A stretch of DNA of 64,000 bases, from the NCBI RefSeq assembly GCF_003790525.1, contig NZ_CP033635.1; one strand, 5' to 3'. This document shows, one piece after another, positions 13,467 to 50,452 of this stretch. Source of the DNA: Escherichia coli (GTDB taxonomy: Bacteria; Pseudomonadota; Gammaproteobacteria; Enterobacterales; Enterobacteriaceae). Under the pieces are notes generated by a model that saw only the letters and a list, made by a program, of their open reading frames with translations, was not told where the DNA came from and ran no database searches. The translations under genes and the position numbers were made by a program. Numbering within the stretch: position 1 is the first letter of the stretch; each line of letters begins with the position of its first letter.

Positions 13467-13775
13467 TTACTTCCTGCGTTTATCCTGCTTTGTATGCCCG
13501 TGCTGAATGCCCCGCAGTGGATCTTCTTTTTTCAGGTCGATCCCCATGTCCGTTAGTGTTTTTGTGGCGGCGGTTCTTATGGCACAAATCAGGTCTCTTT
13601 CCGGTTCCCGGGTTATGGTTGCCTTCCGGATGCATGCCGTTCGTCGTTCCGTTACATACTGACGCGCTTCATCACTTGCCGCCTGTTTCAGTAACTCACC
13701 CCAGCGATTAGCCGCCCGTCGCCATAAACCTTTCGCTTCCAGTTCTTCCGCTTTGTCATCATGCACCATAAGCAT
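13467..13775 (-). CDS. PerC-family-like putative transcriptional activator (copy 2)
   Basis: N-terminal MVHDDKAEELEAKGLWRRAANRWGEL resembles PerC/Pch activators (recalled) and is a paralog of the 17352-17624 ORF; start chosen at an internal Met. Confidence 0.45.
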   Translation of the reverse strand: MLMVHDDKAEELEAKGLWRRAANRWGELLKQAASDEARQYVTERRTACIRKATITREPERDLICAIRTAATKTLTDMGIDLKKEDPLRGIQHGHTKQDKRRK

Positions 13776-13883: not shown

Positions 13884-14174
13884 ATGAGAATGACTAGGCA
13901 CAAAAAACAGATTCTTGAACTCTACAAACCTGAGTATCGCGATTGGGTGCGGGTGGAGGCCGGAGATCCGCCTTTTGATGTTCGTGGTGTGACAGTGCTG
14001 CTCTATGGTTCCGAATATCGGCGATATCACATAGAGGCAACACGAAGGACGCTAAACGCTATGGTTCGTGATAAGTTGCTGGAGCGTGTGAAAGTCCGTG
14101 AGCCACGTTTTGATGTGCGTATTGGTGGCGATGGTGCGCATTGCACGGTAATCCGCTATGGCCTGGTAAGGTAA
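13884..14174 (+). CDS. hypothetical protein (96 aa), only plus-strand gene in the left half of the element
   Basis: ORF with ATG start; internal duplicated motif PPFDVRGV / PRFDVRIGG; followed by the palindrome 'cagaatgtaaatttacattctg'. No family recognised. Confidence 0.4.
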   Translation: MRMTRHKKQILELYKPEYRDWVRVEAGDPPFDVRGVTVLLYGSEYRRYHIEATRRTLNAMVRDKLLERVKVREPRFDVRIGGDGAHCTVIRYGLVR

Positions 14175-14276
14175 GCCATCGGGTAAATCAGATGATTAAA
14201 TCACCAGAATGTAAATTTACATTCTGCCAGCCACCAGCTACCCTCCTCAAAATTGAGGACCCTTTTTATCAACTGG

Positions 14277-14591: not shown

Positions 14592-14655
14592 CGGGTCCTT
14601 TCCGGCATGTGGACCCGTTACGGGGCGTCGACCTCGCGCGTTTTCACTATTTATG
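14592..14655 (+). other. lambda-like cos site, copy A (cosN plus flanking sequence)
   Basis: 'cgggtcctttccgg...gttacggggcgtcgacctcgcgcgttttcactatttatgaaaattttt' closely parallels the phage lambda cos junction as I recall it ('...acgggtcctttccggtgatccgacaggttacg|gggcggcgacctcgcgggttttcgctatttatgaaaattttccgg'); the 12-mer gggcgtcgacct at 14623-14634 differs from the lambda cohesive end at one base. Confidence 0.75.
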
Positions 14656-14671
14656 AAAATTTTTCGGGATC

Positions 14672-14837: not shown

Positions 14838-15272
14838 TTACTGTTCTGTATCGGCTGATTGCTCCATGCTGGCACGGCGAACGCTTACGGCATGACGCCA
14901 CCCAGCCAGAAAGCCAGCCATTTTATTTCGTGCCTTGCTCACATCTTCCGGTGAATAGCCGTAAATATGCAAACCTTCATCAAATCGATGTTCTGTTTCT
15001 TCACTGGAGTACTCGTCACGCTCAGATGAAAGCAGCCTCGCAAACATAATTTTTTCCAGCGCACTGGTTTCTACGTGATATCCGATGGTCTGAAGATGGC
15101 TTTTACCTGAATACCAAAGCAATGTATGCCCGATGTGATAACCGCCAGACTTTCCGCGATCCGCATTAAGATACGGCATCCCCTGTTTGGTCCATGCGCG
15201 AATAGTGGTTCTGTTAACCTTGAAATGTTCAGCTATTTCCTGCTGACTTACAAAACAAGCTTTATCAATCAT
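14838..15272 (-). CDS. terminase small subunit Nu1-like DNA-binding protein (possible packaging-specificity/redirecting factor)
   Basis: N-terminus QQEIAEHFKVNRTTIRAWTKQGMPYL parallels lambda Nu1 KKQLADIFGASIRTIQNWQEQGMPVL (winged HTH); C-terminal half unlike Nu1; flanked by cos-like sites. Confidence 0.65.
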   Translation of the reverse strand: MIDKACFVSQQEIAEHFKVNRTTIRAWTKQGMPYLNADRGKSGGYHIGHTLLWYSGKSHLQTIGYHVETSALEKIMFARLLSSERDEYSSEETEHRFDEGLHIYGYSPEDVSKARNKMAGFLAGWRHAVSVRRASMEQSADTEQ

Positions 15273-15339
15273 AATGTTACCTTAACTGCATGGTTAAATA
15301 TCAATCAAGTGGTGGTGGTGTCACCTTCACGGAAAAACG

Positions 15340-15403
15340 TCATAAATAGCGAAAACGTGCGAGGTCGACGCCCCGTAACGGGTCCACATGCCGGAAAGGA
15401 CCC
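15340..15403 (-). other. lambda-like cos site, copy B (inverted copy of A, cosN plus flank, without the 'ccggacat' array)
   Basis: Reverse complement matches copy A at 62 of 64 positions; lies ~70 bp upstream of the Nu1-like gene start on the same strand. Confidence 0.7.
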
Positions 15404-15404
15404 G

Positions 15405-15430
15405 CAAAAAAAGCCGGATTTCTCCGGCCT
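15405..15430 (-). terminator. rho-independent terminator after the head-gene cluster (minus strand)
   Basis: Minus-strand hairpin ggccggagaaatccggcc followed by a T-run; related hairpin motif at 17324-17345. Confidence 0.5.
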
Positions 15431-15502
15431 TGTCTCAGATGGTTTTCAGTATGCGATAGATGTCGCCGTCATCGCCCTGGTTTGTGCCATCGTTCCCCCT
15501 GC

Positions 15503-15838
15503 TTATCGGGCCAGCGGCTGAACGGATACGCCGGAACCCGCAAAGGCGGCGCATTTTTTCGCATCGGTGTCGACGCTCTCAGGCCAGTTAACGGCGGCAA
15601 TATTGAATATCCCCGTCTTGTAACACTGTGCTGATTTCTGCTTTGACGTGTCCACAGGGTACGAGGTCAGATAAACAGCCTTGCCAGATTCCTTACCATC
15701 CCACGCCTTAAACTCGCCATTGTCTGCCAGCATCAGCGGGGTAAATTCCTGAATAACGCCAGCATCAGCGGCAAAATGTACCAGCGTCGTGGATACCTGT
15801 TGGCTGCCTGAAAATAACTCAATGTATGGAGCGTCCAT
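15503..15838 (-). CDS. head decoration protein, lambda gpD-like
   Basis: 111 aa; motifs TPLMLADNGEFKAWDG, YKTGIF, NWPE and KKCAAFAG parallel lambda gpD (TPLMLDTSSRKLVAWDG, YKSGTF, LWPE, KKRTAFAG) as recalled. Confidence 0.7.
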   Translation of the reverse strand: MDAPYIELFSGSQQVSTTLVHFAADAGVIQEFTPLMLADNGEFKAWDGKESGKAVYLTSYPVDTSKQKSAQCYKTGIFNIAAVNWPESVDTDAKKCAAFAGSGVSVQPLAR

Positions 15839-15849
15839 AGAATCCCCCG

Positions 15850-16905
15850 TTAAGCAATTTTGACGGTAACAAATTTGCGAATATCTGCCGGTACAGGCTG
15901 CGGTGCGCTGTGCGTCTGCACGTACTCAATCGCCGGATCGCCGTCCTCAATCCAGTTTTTCGGGTAGTACATGTTTTGCGTTGCGCCCGTTCTTACCGCT
16001 TCCTGATCCATAATCGCACCATATGCCACCAGCCCTTTATTGTTGGTGTTACCCAGGACCAGCAAATCAGGCTCAAGGAAATATTTTTCGGTCCCGTCGC
16101 TGTCAGTGTATTTGCCGGAATAGACGATAAGGGCCAGATCACCAAGATAGCCTTTAAAGCTCACCACTTCGCCCAGGTTTTTACAGGCCAGCTCGGCGGC
16201 GGATTCTGATCCACGGGAAAGATCGTACAGTTCACGGAATTTTTTAAAGCTGCGTAATGTGCGCCATACCTCACCGCCCATAATCATGACGTTGGCGGGG
16301 CAACCTGCCTGATCAGCATAAAGCTCGATGTCATAGATTGGGTCGTGCATGTCTTTATCCTGCTGGGACCATTTTTTACCACTGGCCTGCTGTATGATGC
16401 AGTTTTCCGGTATTTTCCAGTCGATTTCATAGCGTTCTATGCCTTCGCCCTCAATGATGTTTTTTCCGGTCGTTACCGCATTCACCGCCAGCCATTCCAC
16501 GCGCGCCTTAATGGCGTTTATCTGGCGGCGCATGTTGCCAGTAATCAGGCGCATACGGCGGTAAGTTGGATCGTTAAGCTGTGCCGGATCTTCTCCATCC
16601 ATGCGCATGATGGTCTTTGTTGGATCGATTTCGTGCTTTGGCTTCATGTAGCCTGGTTTAATCGTGCTGGTTTCGTACCCTTTATCGCGCTGGACCTGAC
16701 TACCCACCATAGGAGAACAGAACGCTGACATCGTAACCTCTTCAATGTCCAGGGTGTCCAGCATGATGTTTTGGGTGTTGAAGGTCGCCACGTTCGGGAA
16801 AAACAGCGTGGTAAACAGCGGACTAAATTTATATTCCGAAATATCCCCGCGATTCAGGTACGCGAAAAGCTGGTTAGTTGTAAGTGCCTTTGCTTTGCCT
16901 GTCAT
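15850..16905 (-). CDS. major capsid protein, lambda gpE family
   Basis: 351 aa; YKFSPLFTTLFFP and PGYMKPKHEIDP parallel lambda gpE FKFDPLFLRLFF and PGYVKPKHEVNP; similar length to gpE. Confidence 0.75.
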   Translation of the reverse strand: MTGKAKALTTNQLFAYLNRGDISEYKFSPLFTTLFFPNVATFNTQNIMLDTLDIEEVTMSAFCSPMVGSQVQRDKGYETSTIKPGYMKPKHEIDPTKTIMRMDGEDPAQLNDPTYRRMRLITGNMRRQINAIKARVEWLAVNAVTTGKNIIEGEGIERYEIDWKIPENCIIQQASGKKWSQQDKDMHDPIYDIELYADQAGCPANVMIMGGEVWRTLRSFKKFRELYDLSRGSESAAELACKNLGEVVSFKGYLGDLALIVYSGKYTDSDGTEKYFLEPDLLVLGNTNNKGLVAYGAIMDQEAVRTGATQNMYYPKNWIEDGDPAIEYVQTHSAPQPVPADIRKFVTVKIA

Positions 16906-17111
16906 TATTCACCTCCGTGAACCTGATTGATACCCAGCGCCGCACGCAAATAGGTGCGCACCTGCCAGCCTGTTGACGGCTCAACCATCGCCAGCGGATC
17001 AAGTCCTGCCGCAATGCCTGCTTTTACATTCTGCTGGTGGCGTTCCTTGAGCGCCTCCACGATGTCGGGGCTTATGTAGACCGTCACCCCGCCTTTTTTC
17101 TCTTCTGCCAT
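16905..17111 (-). CDS. hypothetical protein (68 aa), first gene of the head cluster
   Basis: ORF with ATG start, stop overlaps the capsid gene start; no family recognised. Confidence 0.4.
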   Translation of the reverse strand: MAEEKKGGVTVYISPDIVEALKERHQQNVKAGIAAGLDPLAMVEPSTGWQVRTYLRAALGINQVHGGE

Positions 17112-17323
17112 AGTCAGAAATTCCTCTTTGACTTAAAAAATCATAACTGGATGTTCATCCAGTCCTGATTATAATCATGATTGCATTTTGCGCAACAATA
17201 TTGAGTTACGTTGCAAATTATGAAATGATTATCCCGATCATGTGTGTCAGTTCACCATAAAAAACCTCGTATACAAAAGCCCCATAAGCCCCCTGTGACC
17301 TTATCGGGCTTTTTTTAGGCGTA

Positions 17324-17345
17324 AAAAAGCCGGATTGCTCCGGCT
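17324..17345 (-). terminator. rho-independent terminator downstream of the PerC-like gene (minus strand)
   Basis: Minus-strand hairpin gccggagcaatccggc followed by TTTTTT. Confidence 0.5.
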
Positions 17346-17351
17346 GTGTGC

Positions 17352-17624
17352 TCACTTCTGCGGGTAGTTGCGCCATATTGCTTTGCCAATACCAGCTATC
17401 CCCATTTGTTTTTCAGTGCGATTAACTGACCTTTTCAGAGCGCCTAAATCATCCGGCGGCTCCGGTGGCCTCTGTGCCTTACGGATACATTCCGCGCGAC
17501 GCATTGCCACCTGTTCGCGCTCCTTGTCTGTCTCCACCAGCCTCATAACTTCACCCCATCGCGCCGCCGCCCTCCGGTAAAAGCCTTTTGCCTCGAGTTC
17601 CTCCGCTATGCGGTCATGTACCAT
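17352..17624 (-). CDS. PerC-family-like putative transcriptional activator (copy 1)
   Basis: MVHDRIAEELEAKGFYRRAAARWGEV...; paralog of the 13467-13775 ORF; start placed at the internal Met just after the ssb stop. Confidence 0.45.
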   Translation of the reverse strand: MVHDRIAEELEAKGFYRRAAARWGEVMRLVETDKEREQVAMRRAECIRKAQRPPEPPDDLGALKRSVNRTEKQMGIAGIGKAIWRNYPQK

Positions 17625-20781: not shown

Positions 20782-21060
20782 GACTCCCCTCCTGACGGAT
20801 ACGGGCGGCGAATACAGCGACACAACCGGACGGGCAACGGTTACGCGCTTCGCGTTCCGTCCAGGCGGTCACGTGGATAATTTGAGATTCTCCGGCACTC
20901 AGTGCCAGAAAACGCCACACAAAGGCGGTTTGTGTGTGCGCTAGTCGTGGGGTATGCTGTGTTCCAGCCATAATCGTTACTCCTGTTAACGGTTTGGTTA
21001 GACGCCCTGCATGTGTTACAGCACTGCGGGGCGTTGTCTTTTTAACGGCTTTCGTGATAG

Positions 21061-21104
21061 GGTGTACACCTATCAAGCAAAAACATAACGCTATAGGTGT
21101 ACAC
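21061..21104. promoter_or_regulatory. perfect 12-bp inverted repeat (gtgtacacctat ... ataggtgtacac), candidate operator abutting a small regulator gene
   Basis: Read directly from sequence; the 3' half ends 1 nt before the ATG at 21105. Confidence 0.5.
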
Positions 21105-21299
21105 ATGTCAACAGTTATTAAGCGAGATAAAAAACCAAAGGGAACAGGAAAAGCCCCCCCATTCCATATGCGAATAGCTCCAGAACTGAAAGAGCAGTTT
21201 GATAATGAGGCCAGCAATGATGGGGTAAGCCTAGCCAACTGGCTTAAAGAGTTGGGGCGCGCCGAACTAAAGCGACGCGGCATTGAACCTAAAGGCTGA
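21105..21299 (+). CDS. small basic protein (64 aa), possible ribbon-helix-helix/YlcI-YnfO-like prophage regulator
   Basis: MSTVIKRDKKPKGTGKAPPFHMRIAPELKEQFDNEASNDGVSLANWLKELGRAELKRRGIEPKG; family assignment from memory only; divergent from the replication operon. Confidence 0.4.
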   Translation: MSTVIKRDKKPKGTGKAPPFHMRIAPELKEQFDNEASNDGVSLANWLKELGRAELKRRGIEPKG

Positions 21300-21302
21300 T
21301 GT

Positions 21303-21426
21303 ATGACTGAAAAGCAGACCGATAACAAACTTTCTCTACCAGAGAATAAACCAGCAGGCTTCTTACCAAGAAAAATCCTTGATGAGATCAAACGCCGCCA
21401 GCGCCGCAAGGCCAAAGAGCAGGAAT
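21303..21426 (+). CDS. possible small protein (41 aa, Lys/Arg-rich C-terminus)
   Basis: ATG 4 nt after the preceding stop; MTEKQTDNKLSLPENKPAGFLPRKILDEIKRRQRRKAKEQE; followed by a strong hairpin terminator. Too short for the ORF track. Confidence 0.25.

Positions 21427-47656: not shown

Positions 47657-50452
<2,796 letters not shown>

Follow-up and report, generated by a model that had tools for sequence, protein, structure and literature searches.

Near-identical GC-rich hairpins, predicted Rho-independent terminators, border the capsid cassette of an EcCICFT073-type phage-inducible chromosomal island

Two near-identical GC-rich hairpins, each followed by a run of T residues on the minus strand, lie on either side of a short block of phage head genes in an E. 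coli chromosome, which raises the question of what they do there and why they are so alike. In the window (the whole 64-kb stretch of DNA that was analysed), a first-pass annotation had read them as repeated terminators bracketing a head operon and separating it transcriptionally from terS/cos on one side and from replication genes on the other.

The element and its gene map

By gene content and DNA similarity, the element can be assigned to the phage-inducible chromosomal islands (PICIs) of the EcCICFT073 type, that is, to a phage satellite, here inserted in tqsA. The two halves of the interrupted tqsA are about 11.4 kb apart, giving an island of ~11 kb whose DNA shares 93% identity with the EcCICFT073 locus in CFT073 and about 99% with strain PKF11. 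AlpA (PF05930, E 5e-18), PerC, SSB, capsid and decoration domains are encoded in the island, and the integrase and co-directional genes are taken from the annotation of the near-identical PKF11 locus. The general organization is that of a PICI, with an integrase and AlpA at one end of a unidirectional array, a replication module of its own (a RepA-family helicase and SSB), a length in the size class of about 10-15 kb, a chromosomal att site, and an Rpp protein together with lambda-like cos site(s) in an element without its own terminase. All genes in the block are transcribed on the minus strand, and Gram-negative PICIs have been reported to be unidirectionally transcribed (PMC6092414); helper-phage induction and transfer have been demonstrated experimentally for EcCICFT073 itself only (PMC6092414). 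A catalogued phage was ruled out, since 50,697 phage records searched by megablast with the region as query gave zero matches. A capsid-protein search for related loci in genome contigs gave 14 pattern matches, none of which was confirmed.

In the direction of transcription, the replication gene lies upstream of the SSB gene, which precedes a gene for a PerC-family regulator (17352-17624, minus strand; Pfam PF06069, E 1.5e-39, and PKF11 annotation), the last of the upstream replication/accessory block. The capsid cassette then starts with a 68-aa ORF (16905-17111, minus strand; phrog_3255, function unknown), followed by homologues of the major capsid protein of the lambda gpE family (15850-16905, minus strand; Pfam PF03864, E 2e-49; phrog_29) and of the head decoration protein of the lambda gpD family (15503-15838, minus strand; Pfam PF02924, E 4e-17; phrog_49). 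Their counterparts in EcCICFT073 are c1499 (PMC6092414) and c1500, respectively, and the cassette has no known phenotype in that island (PMC6092414). What had been called a head operon is better described as the cassette of a PICI satellite, with no portal, protease or terminase gene found in the island; neither terS nor terL is annotated in the near-identical PKF11 locus. Alignment with four related loci revealed a deletion scar (15446-15492, minus strand) where the cassette has lost a fourth gene (137 aa, phrog_1999), which relatives still have, between 8-bp direct repeats CGATGGCA, leaving a remnant ORF of 14 codons, out of frame, at 15490-15446.

Beyond the cassette lies a cos site co-oriented with transcription (15327-15404, minus strand), with cosQ GGGTCCTTTCCGG at 15403-15391 and a cosN-like core at 15367-15340. 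The next gene (14838-15272, minus strand), previously labelled terS, is instead a homologue of rpp (redirecting phage packaging; PDB 6HLK RppC, E 4.3e-32, with weak Nu1/HTH matches), and Rpp is a protein that redirects the TerS of the helper (PMC6739421). Promoter-like hexamers are found between cos and the rpp ATG (15324-15297 and 15297-15268). A second, inverted cos site (14592-14669, plus strand), which forms with the first a pair of 78-nt arms of 91% complementarity, lies on the other side of rpp, which is thus flanked by two mutually inverted cos sites, and has no adjoining hairpin. Both cos sites of EcCICFT073, cos1 and cos2, either of which may be the inverted copy, are functional when cloned (PMC6092414).

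Two hairpins predicted to terminate transcription

The minus-strand motif GCCGGAG(A/C)AATCCGGC followed by a T-run occurs twice in the window, at 15406-15428 and 17323-17345, within 1-2 nt of where it had been placed and on the strand that had been named. Hairpin 1 reads GCCGGA-GAAA-TCCGGC from 15428 to 15413, followed by T7 at 15412-15406 (15406-15429 with the G that precedes the stem), and abuts cosQ. Hairpin 2 reads GCCGGA-GCAA-TCCGGC from 17344 to 17329, followed by T6 at 17328-17323, and has an additional A-U closing pair (17345/17328). The second loop position is the sole difference between the two hairpins, and the repeat unit that they share stretches to 27 nt with 89% identity. No further match was found in the window at up to two mismatches. 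In shuffled sequences, 0.14 matches are expected per window, and two matches were reached in one of 100 shuffles.

The hairpin core has a folding energy of -10.4 kcal/mol (-12.0 kcal/mol with the closing pair), and in a 56-nt context the z-scores are -2.7 (hairpin 1) and -1.7 (hairpin 2) on the gene strand, and -0.6 and -0.8 on the opposite strand. Intrinsic terminators are defined by a stem that is GC-rich and has 5 bp or more, a loop of 3-8 nt, a U-rich tract (at least five of eight) directly 3' of the stem, and a position on the coding strand downstream of a gene end. Here, the stems are of 6-7 bp with five G-C pairs, the loops of 4 nt and the tracts T7 and T6, and both hairpins, like their relatives, follow gene ends on the coding strand. 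In a consensus terminator scan, hairpin 2 ranked fourth of 28 candidates, a list from which hairpin 1 was absent, probably because the stem was extended greedily, so that 'caag' from upstream was paired to the T-run and the remaining tail was too short. Across the whole island, an Rfam scan gave no match at the hairpins, and only a sub-threshold symR-like match at 20966-21038.

With respect to the genes, hairpin 2 lies 7 nt beyond the PerC stop (17352), a position that is conserved in related PICIs. It is indeed upstream of the cassette, as had been noted, although at a distance of 212 nt from the first cassette ORF (ATG at 17111) and with a further conserved structure in between that had been overlooked. 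This structure, hairpin 2b (17275-17316), directly follows hairpin 2 and consists of A7, a 14-bp stem AAAAGCCCGATAAG/CTTATGGGGCTTTT and a loop that varies; it resembles a bidirectional terminator, with a T7 run on the plus strand that is stronger than the T4 run on the minus strand. It folds at -38.3 kcal/mol over a 111-nt region (z -2.7), and the copy in the window has a single C->G stem mismatch. Its arms are identical in 90 of 96 relatives, which display 10 loop variants. A pattern scan of genome contigs for hairpin 2b gave five matches, all in unrelated Bacteroidota/Peptococcaceae and thus chance palindromes, which yielded no cross-species covariation set. The leader of the cassette (17112-17274, minus strand), conserved in 12 of 12 related loci, includes a perfect TATAAT at 17173-17168 inside the palindrome TGATTATAATCA, a second palindrome ACTGGATGAACATCCAGT at 17163-17146, and a Shine-Dalgarno sequence ahead of the ATG at 17111. 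It would be a putative promoter/operator, with a perfect -10 and a poor -35.

Hairpin 1 is downstream of the decoration gene, as had been claimed, but not directly so, since it lies 75 nt beyond the stop (15503), past the deletion scar, 17 nt after the stop of the remnant ORF and 6 nt after that of the ancestral 137-aa gene. In the ancestral arrangement, it stands downstream of the fourth cassette gene that is deleted here.

Hairpins 1 and 2 are therefore best read, with good though not complete confidence, as canonical Rho-independent terminators of an EcCICFT073-type PICI. A transcript running through the replication, SSB and PerC genes would be stopped at hairpin 2 (17345-17323), with hairpin 2b (17316-17275) as a possible back-up, and together these two structures would insulate the leader and putative promoter of the cassette (68-aa ORF, gpE-like and gpD-like genes). 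At hairpin 1 (15429-15406), transcription of the cassette would end precisely at the left boundary of cos, so that RNA polymerase would be released before cosQ/cosN and would not continue into rpp, a gene with its own promoter-like sequences. In each case, the nascent RNA would form a GC-rich stem of 6-7 bp with a GNRA tetraloop, and the U6-7 tract would then destabilize the RNA-DNA hybrid.

A hairpin shared across related islands

Why the two copies are so alike becomes clearer when related islands are considered. Throughout about 300 copies of the hairpin in these islands, the 12 stem bases show a single change, to a G·U wobble that preserves the pair, and the stem is unchanged in all 99 copies at sites that were located without specifying the hairpin. 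Variation in the main sample is confined to the second loop position (A, C or T), as a GNRA tetraloop permits, the loop being GAAA, GCAA or GTAA in all but 13 of the roughly 300 copies (GAAAA or GAAG). The stem is retained in the rare variants, which comprise a loop of 5 nt, a GAAG loop, the one G-C to G·U change and two copies that add a G-C pair. No double compensatory stem change was found among the related copies, and with a near-invariant stem and almost no covariation, the conservation could reflect recent spread or gene conversion instead of structural selection.

In 12 related loci from E. coli and some 150 contigs of IMG/VR, every copy is on the gene strand, has a T5-10 tail and follows a stop codon at a distance of 4-23 nt (about 170 instances), and the hairpin was never found on the opposite strand within the PICIs examined. 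The upstream gene is PerC in 76 cases, the 137-aa gene in 55, a 74-aa gene in 28 and an 81-aa gene in 10. About 44% of copies adjoin cosQ, and the majority, away from cos, follow the PerC, 74-aa or 81-aa genes. Upstream and downstream contexts recombine freely (at least six of each), which fits a portable junction cassette. The 16-nt hairpin with its T-run is probably a reusable cassette, spread family-wide by duplication or recombination and present at nearly all junctions between modules in the late/accessory half of the islands, which would account for the near-identity of the copies. A literature search found no published description of these PICI terminators.

The claim that near-identical terminators bracket the capsid genes thus holds for the sequence features, strand bias, conservation and positions that are observed (stop codons, T5-10 tails, GNRA loops, constancy of the stem), and from these we infer termination itself, its efficiency and the positions of the promoters. 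The separation that had been proposed from the cos/packaging gene and from the replication-side genes is borne out by position, the gene next to hairpin 2 being PerC.

The cos sites provide a natural control. The hairpin stands directly before cosQ in 62 of 62 cos sites that are co-oriented with transcription and is absent from 47 of 47 inverted copies, which indicates that it tracks the direction of transcription. The idea that it is part of cos was rejected on the same inverted copies and on the finding that homology to lambdoid phages at cos starts only inside the T-run of hairpin 1. Of 5426 complete E. coli genomes, at least 539 contain the unit of hairpin plus cosQ. In a broader scenario, which we put forward tentatively and with more doubt than conviction, the hairpin with its T-run would be the standard joint between modules throughout a family of E. 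coli phage satellites that at least 10% of the complete genomes of this species carry, doubling as an insulator between transcription and packaging at cos and as a short-homology recombination site. As an insulator, the copy at a co-oriented cos would replace the AT-rich palindrome of the helper and clear RNA polymerase from where Rpp-TerS assembles, while recombination between identical copies would drive gain, loss and shuffling of the capsid cassette, PerC, small ORFs and extra cos sites. Late transcription in lambda normally crosses cos under Q antitermination, and insulation of cos is therefore not an established requirement.

The alternative that fares best, although it seems improbable, is that the terminators are conditional, blocking basal transcription and being read through after induction, by a helper Q-modified polymerase or by means of the island AlpA, to give one late transcript including the cassette, cos and rpp. 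The genes are co-directional, the 'activation' of downstream reporters by AlpA (PMC6092414) is compatible with antitermination as well, and AlpA of P. aeruginosa is a proven antiterminator (PMC7969949, PMC9371919). Moreover, for PICIs embedded in a helper, transcription by late read-through from the helper has been proposed (PMC10111431), and in the leader the -10 is immediately followed by a hairpin and T-run (17163-17132), an arrangement loosely reminiscent of a late promoter and its early terminator. However, this T-run is 5 nt distant from its stem, which makes for a poor terminator, and rpp has its own promoter-like hexamers. When all PDB chains were searched by phmmer with the island AlpA, at E up to 1, only 8C3T was retrieved and not AlpA of P. 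aeruginosa. Finally, a distant search with the leader (17105-17325) against the 50,697 phage records found no match, including to phage late-promoter regions, and thus lends no support to a borrowed phage late promoter or qut site.

It is harder still to defend the notion of an element acting at the level of DNA, either a palindromic site for an island or helper protein (an accessory packaging site next to cosQ, for instance, or an operator) or a scar of recombination that plays no part in transcription, which we consider very unlikely. The 6+6 palindrome is perfect and sits beside cosQ in about 44% of copies, at a position where lambdoid phages keep a conserved palindrome, and the hairpin forms an island of identity between non-homologous flanks, as a recombination joint would. 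Against this, strand asymmetry is strict, with the T-run always on the gene strand and no hairpin at any of the 47 inverted cos sites, and most copies are away from cos, after PerC or the 74-aa/81-aa genes. Furthermore, loop variation obeys the GNRA rule, an increase in loop length from 4 to 5 nt is tolerated, and the G-C to G·U variant retains RNA pairing yet breaks the DNA palindrome. As for a chance resemblance of unrelated short GC-rich hairpins, the motif is short (16 nt) and the 16-mer with T-run also occurs in about 15 unrelated AT-rich viral contigs, so that independent origin is possible there, but this reading is effectively refuted by the comparative data, with 0.14 matches expected in the window, both positions conserved in every related island examined and the hairpin-cosQ unit found at the genomic frequency given above.

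Consequences and comparison with known systems

The reading of hairpins 1 and 2 as terminators leaves our understanding of termination itself unchanged; they would be ordinary biology. What changes is the annotation: the region becomes a PICI satellite that carries an orphan cassette for capsid and decoration proteins, together with an Rpp gene and two cos sites in inverted orientation. The late half would comprise at least three transcription units (replication/PerC, capsid cassette, and rpp onward), the published view being that of a single AlpA-activated unidirectional array, and such separate units may help explain independent regulation of the capsid cassette and rpp. A compact, strong-looking and naturally reused terminator might also be a useful part for PICI-based delivery vehicles.

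The closest known system, EcCICFT073 (PMC6092414, PMC6739421), is about 92-94% identical in DNA over the cassette, cos and rpp block, shares int, alpA, a replication gene, SSB, PerC, capsid, decoration, an Rpp homologue and two cos sites, and has both hairpins at the same positions. It differs in its site (between roxA and phoQ, as opposed to tqsA), in having a primase where the island has a RepA-type helicase, and in the gene at the c1501 position, the 137-aa gene that the island has lost between 8-bp repeats. The lambda pR'-tR'/Q and P. aeruginosa AlpA modules likewise have terminators inside a co-directional late-gene array and, as in the island, an 'AlpA' regulator required for downstream expression, but unlike in these modules no qut-like or AlpA-binding element was identified in the island. 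In lambdoid phages, the left flank of cos likewise has a short inverted repeat and then a T-rich run immediately 5' of cosQ. However, this palindrome is AT-rich, ATGATAAT-N-ATTATCAT, with about -5 kcal/mol, as against the strong GC/GNRA hairpin of the PICIs, and the GC hairpin is missing from each of 103 phage cos sites. The design is otherwise that of canonical E. coli Rho-independent terminators with a GNRA loop, which have the same GC-rich stem of 6-7 bp, 4-nt loop and U6-7 tract, and the same unidirectional arrangement on the coding strand a few nucleotides past the stop codon, with no mechanistic difference. What sets the PICI hairpin apart from these is that a near-constant stem is reused two to three times per element, family-wide, and that cos has one copy joined directly to its left edge.

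An EcCICFT073-type island in tqsA

The window is a stretch of E. coli chromosome ~99% identical to strain PKF11 across the aligned stretch (100% in the 3 kb first queried), and both hairpins lie within an ~11.4 kb element whose insertion site is tqsA. This element encodes an integrase, AlpA (PF05930), a RepA-type helicase, SSB, two PerC-family proteins, a capsid protein of the lambda gpE family (PF03864), a decoration protein of the gpD family (PF02924) and a 144-aa protein with a match to the solved structure of RppC (6HLK, E 4e-32). Portal, protease and terminase are absent from it, which is therefore not a phage head operon, and megablast of the region against 50,697 phage records gave no match. 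The block around the hairpins shares 92-94% identity with EcCICFT073, the model phage-inducible chromosomal island (PICI) of Gram-negative bacteria, and in every testable respect the element is a PICI of this type. The 'head operon' and 'terS' of the first-pass annotation thus become a PICI capsid cassette and rpp, respectively. In EcCICFT073, the capsid and decoration homologues are c1499 and c1500; interference with lambda persisted when these were deleted, and no phenotype is known for c1499 (PMC6092414). Rpp steers the TerS of the helper to the cos site of the island (PMC6739421).

At its accessory end the island has the second PerC-family gene (13467-13769, minus strand), an ORF on the plus strand (13884-14174) and, between convergent genes, a small bidirectional hairpin (TCCTCAAAATTGAGGA, 14244-14259). 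Elsewhere, a segment between the Icd-like gene and ylcI/ynfO (~21036-21384) has been replaced or has undergone an indel, with 348 nt in the window vs 262 nt in PKF11, and there is a sub-threshold symR-like Rfam match at 20966-21038 (plus strand).

Sequence and conservation of the hairpin

Hairpin 1 (GCCGGA-GAAA-TCCGGC, 15428 to 15413, followed by T7 at 15412-15406) and hairpin 2 (GCCGGA-GCAA-TCCGGC, 17344 to 17329, with an extra A-U closing pair and followed by T6 at 17328-17323), both on the minus strand, are the only matches to the motif in the 64 kb window with up to two mismatches; shuffles gave an expectation of 0.14, and two matches were reached in one of 100. The repeat they share extends to 27 nt with 89% identity. 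Each has a folding energy of -12.0 kcal/mol, and with 56 nt of context, folding is more stable than in shuffles on the gene strand (z of -2.7 for hairpin 1 and -1.7 for hairpin 2) but not on the opposite strand (-0.6 and -0.8). A consensus terminator scan placed hairpin 2 fourth among 28 candidates and did not pick up hairpin 1, presumably because greedy stem extension consumed part of its T-run.

The comparison covered 12 related E. coli loci and ~150 IMG/VR contigs, mostly 8-14 kb and PICI-like, which were recovered either with the hairpin pattern or with a pattern in which the hairpin was not specified. Every PICI carries two or three copies, one invariably between the last cassette gene and cosQ, the other one or two preceding the cassette behind a PerC, SSB, 74-aa or 81-aa gene. 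Without exception, the copies lie on the gene strand 4-23 nt past a stop codon and run into T5-10. None of the 12 stem bases is substituted at any of the 99 sites that the hairpin-independent pattern recovered. Copies retrieved with the hairpin pattern itself have GAAA, GCAA or GTAA as their loop, a variation confined to the free N of a GNRA tetraloop. Rarer variants keep the stem: nine have loops of 5 nt, four have a GAAG loop, accompanied in one case by a change of G-C to G·U, and two gain a G-C pair. At least six different upstream contexts and at least six downstream ones mix freely, the hairpin being an island of identity amid otherwise non-homologous flanks. Among 5426 complete E. coli genomes, at least 539 contain the 63-nt unit of hairpin plus cosQ. 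Chance resemblance of the two hairpins is excluded by the shuffle expectation, the conservation over 99 sites and this number of genomes. The exact 16-mer with a T-run is also found after unrelated genes in AT-rich non-PICI viral contigs (L041, L044, L046, L062, L064-L067, L076 and L126), as though this GNRA terminator hairpin had been adopted there independently, by convergence.

Surroundings of the two copies

Two bases past the T-run of hairpin 1 starts cosQ (GGGTCCTTTCCGG, 15403-15391); the hairpin is fused to cos. This lambda-like cos site, oriented with transcription (15327-15404, minus strand), and a second, inverted one (14592-14669, plus strand) make up an inverted repeat with 78-nt arms (91% complementary) that flanks rpp, to which promoter-like hexamers at 15324-15297 and 15297-15268 belong. 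EcCICFT073 likewise has two lambda-like cos sites, cos1 and cos2, which both work when cloned (PMC6092414). In the window, the terminator hairpin adjoins only the copy oriented with transcription, and across the comparison it lies directly upstream of all 62 such sites and of none of 47 inverted copies, and therefore tracks the direction of transcription. Three loci, L003 (~6087-5990, minus strand), L006 and L012 (no PerC there), have an additional cos-like site between hairpin 2 and the capsid cassette. Its core differs (ACGGGTCCTCCTGG...ACGGGGCGGGAGGCGCGGAAAAAAGCGC), and it may serve as cos for a different type of helper.

Lambdoid phages match the PICI cos sequence only from the T-run on. 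Just 5' of cosQ, where PICIs have the GC hairpin, they have an AT-rich palindrome (ATGATAAT-N-ATTATCAT, then TTTGC or TTTAC), seen in lambda (48440-48475), 2H10, PhiR5_1 and 103 phage-contig cos sites, none of which has the GC hairpin (loci L013, which is lambda, L014, L015 and L176-L262). Some variants of the palindrome keep pairing, and we know of no function described for it. PICIs have swapped the phage palindrome for a GC hairpin.

Upstream of hairpin 1 (15446-15492, minus strand) is the deletion scar of a fourth cassette gene, lost from the window between 8-bp direct repeats (CGATGGCA), of which a 14-codon out-of-frame ORF remains (15490-15446). In relatives, including the close ones aligned to the window (L009-L011), this gene encodes a 137-aa protein (phrog_1999) that weakly matches the C-terminal part of head-maturation proteases and is labelled 'head-tail connector' in some annotations.

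Hairpin 2 starts 7 nt past the PerC stop and is followed by a second, conserved hairpin, 2b (17316-17275), consisting of A7, a 14-bp stem with a variable loop of 10-13 nt and T4 on the minus strand, or T7 on the plus strand. The arms do not vary among 90 of 96 relatives, the loop occurs in 10 variants and the window copy has one C to G stem mismatch. Because of the T7 on the plus strand, the pair resembles a back-to-back insulator; hairpin 2b seems stronger as a plus-strand terminator and could be the end of an unannotated plus-strand RNA begun in the cassette leader. Scans of the genome contig collection with its pattern and with the capsid protein were unproductive. The leader itself (17112-17274, minus strand) is a conserved stretch of ~160 nt with a perfect TATAAT (17173-17168) within a palindrome (TGATTATAATCA), which makes this -10 hexamer readable on both strands, then a second, 18-nt palindrome (ACTGGATGAACATCCAGT, 17163-17146) followed by ATGATTTTTT, and a Shine-Dalgarno sequence before the ATG at 17111. 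It may combine promoter and operator, and a distant search of phage records found no phage homologue.

Probable terminators at module junctions

Hairpins 1 and 2 are probably standard Rho-independent terminators; at the sequence level (stem, loop, T-run and position behind a gene) they display the features of intrinsic terminators. Hairpin 2, backed by 2b, would end the transcript from the replication, SSB and PerC genes, the two together shielding the cassette leader, and hairpin 1 would end the cassette transcript at the cos edge, ahead of rpp. What the analysis shows is the sequence, strand bias, conservation and position of the hairpins; that termination takes place, how efficient it is and where the promoters lie, we infer. 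The first-pass annotation, which had near-identical terminators bracketing a head operon and parting it from terS/cos and the replication genes, was right about the motif, its placement and coordinates at both sites, and its terminator logic agrees with sequence, strand and conservation; its phage, terS and operon labels do not hold. The near-identity of the copies would stem from one portable terminator cassette reused at module junctions and spread by duplication or recombination. A bolder and rather doubtful extension, of moderate interest if true, is that the hairpin is a transcription-packaging insulator doubling as a recombination joint.

The terminators might instead be conditional, read through via an antiterminator, either Q of the helper or AlpA, which is an antiterminator in P. 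aeruginosa (PMC7969949, PMC9371919). Such read-through would be in keeping with the single direction of the array and with the 'activation' reported for AlpA (PMC6092414). However, AlpA of the island has no detectable similarity to Pseudomonas AlpA and the leader lacks a phage homologue, which makes the idea unlikely. That the repeat is a protein-binding site at the DNA level, or nothing but a recombination scar, is highly improbable in view of the strand asymmetry, the GNRA loops, the G·U variant and the lack of a hairpin at every inverted cos copy.

A literature search found no paper mentioning these terminators, and no Rfam family covers the hairpins. Taken as the intrinsic terminators that they most resemble, they are mildly unusual in two ways: a single hairpin with an almost unchanged stem is reused family-wide, and it is fused to every co-oriented cos, in the place of the phage palindrome.
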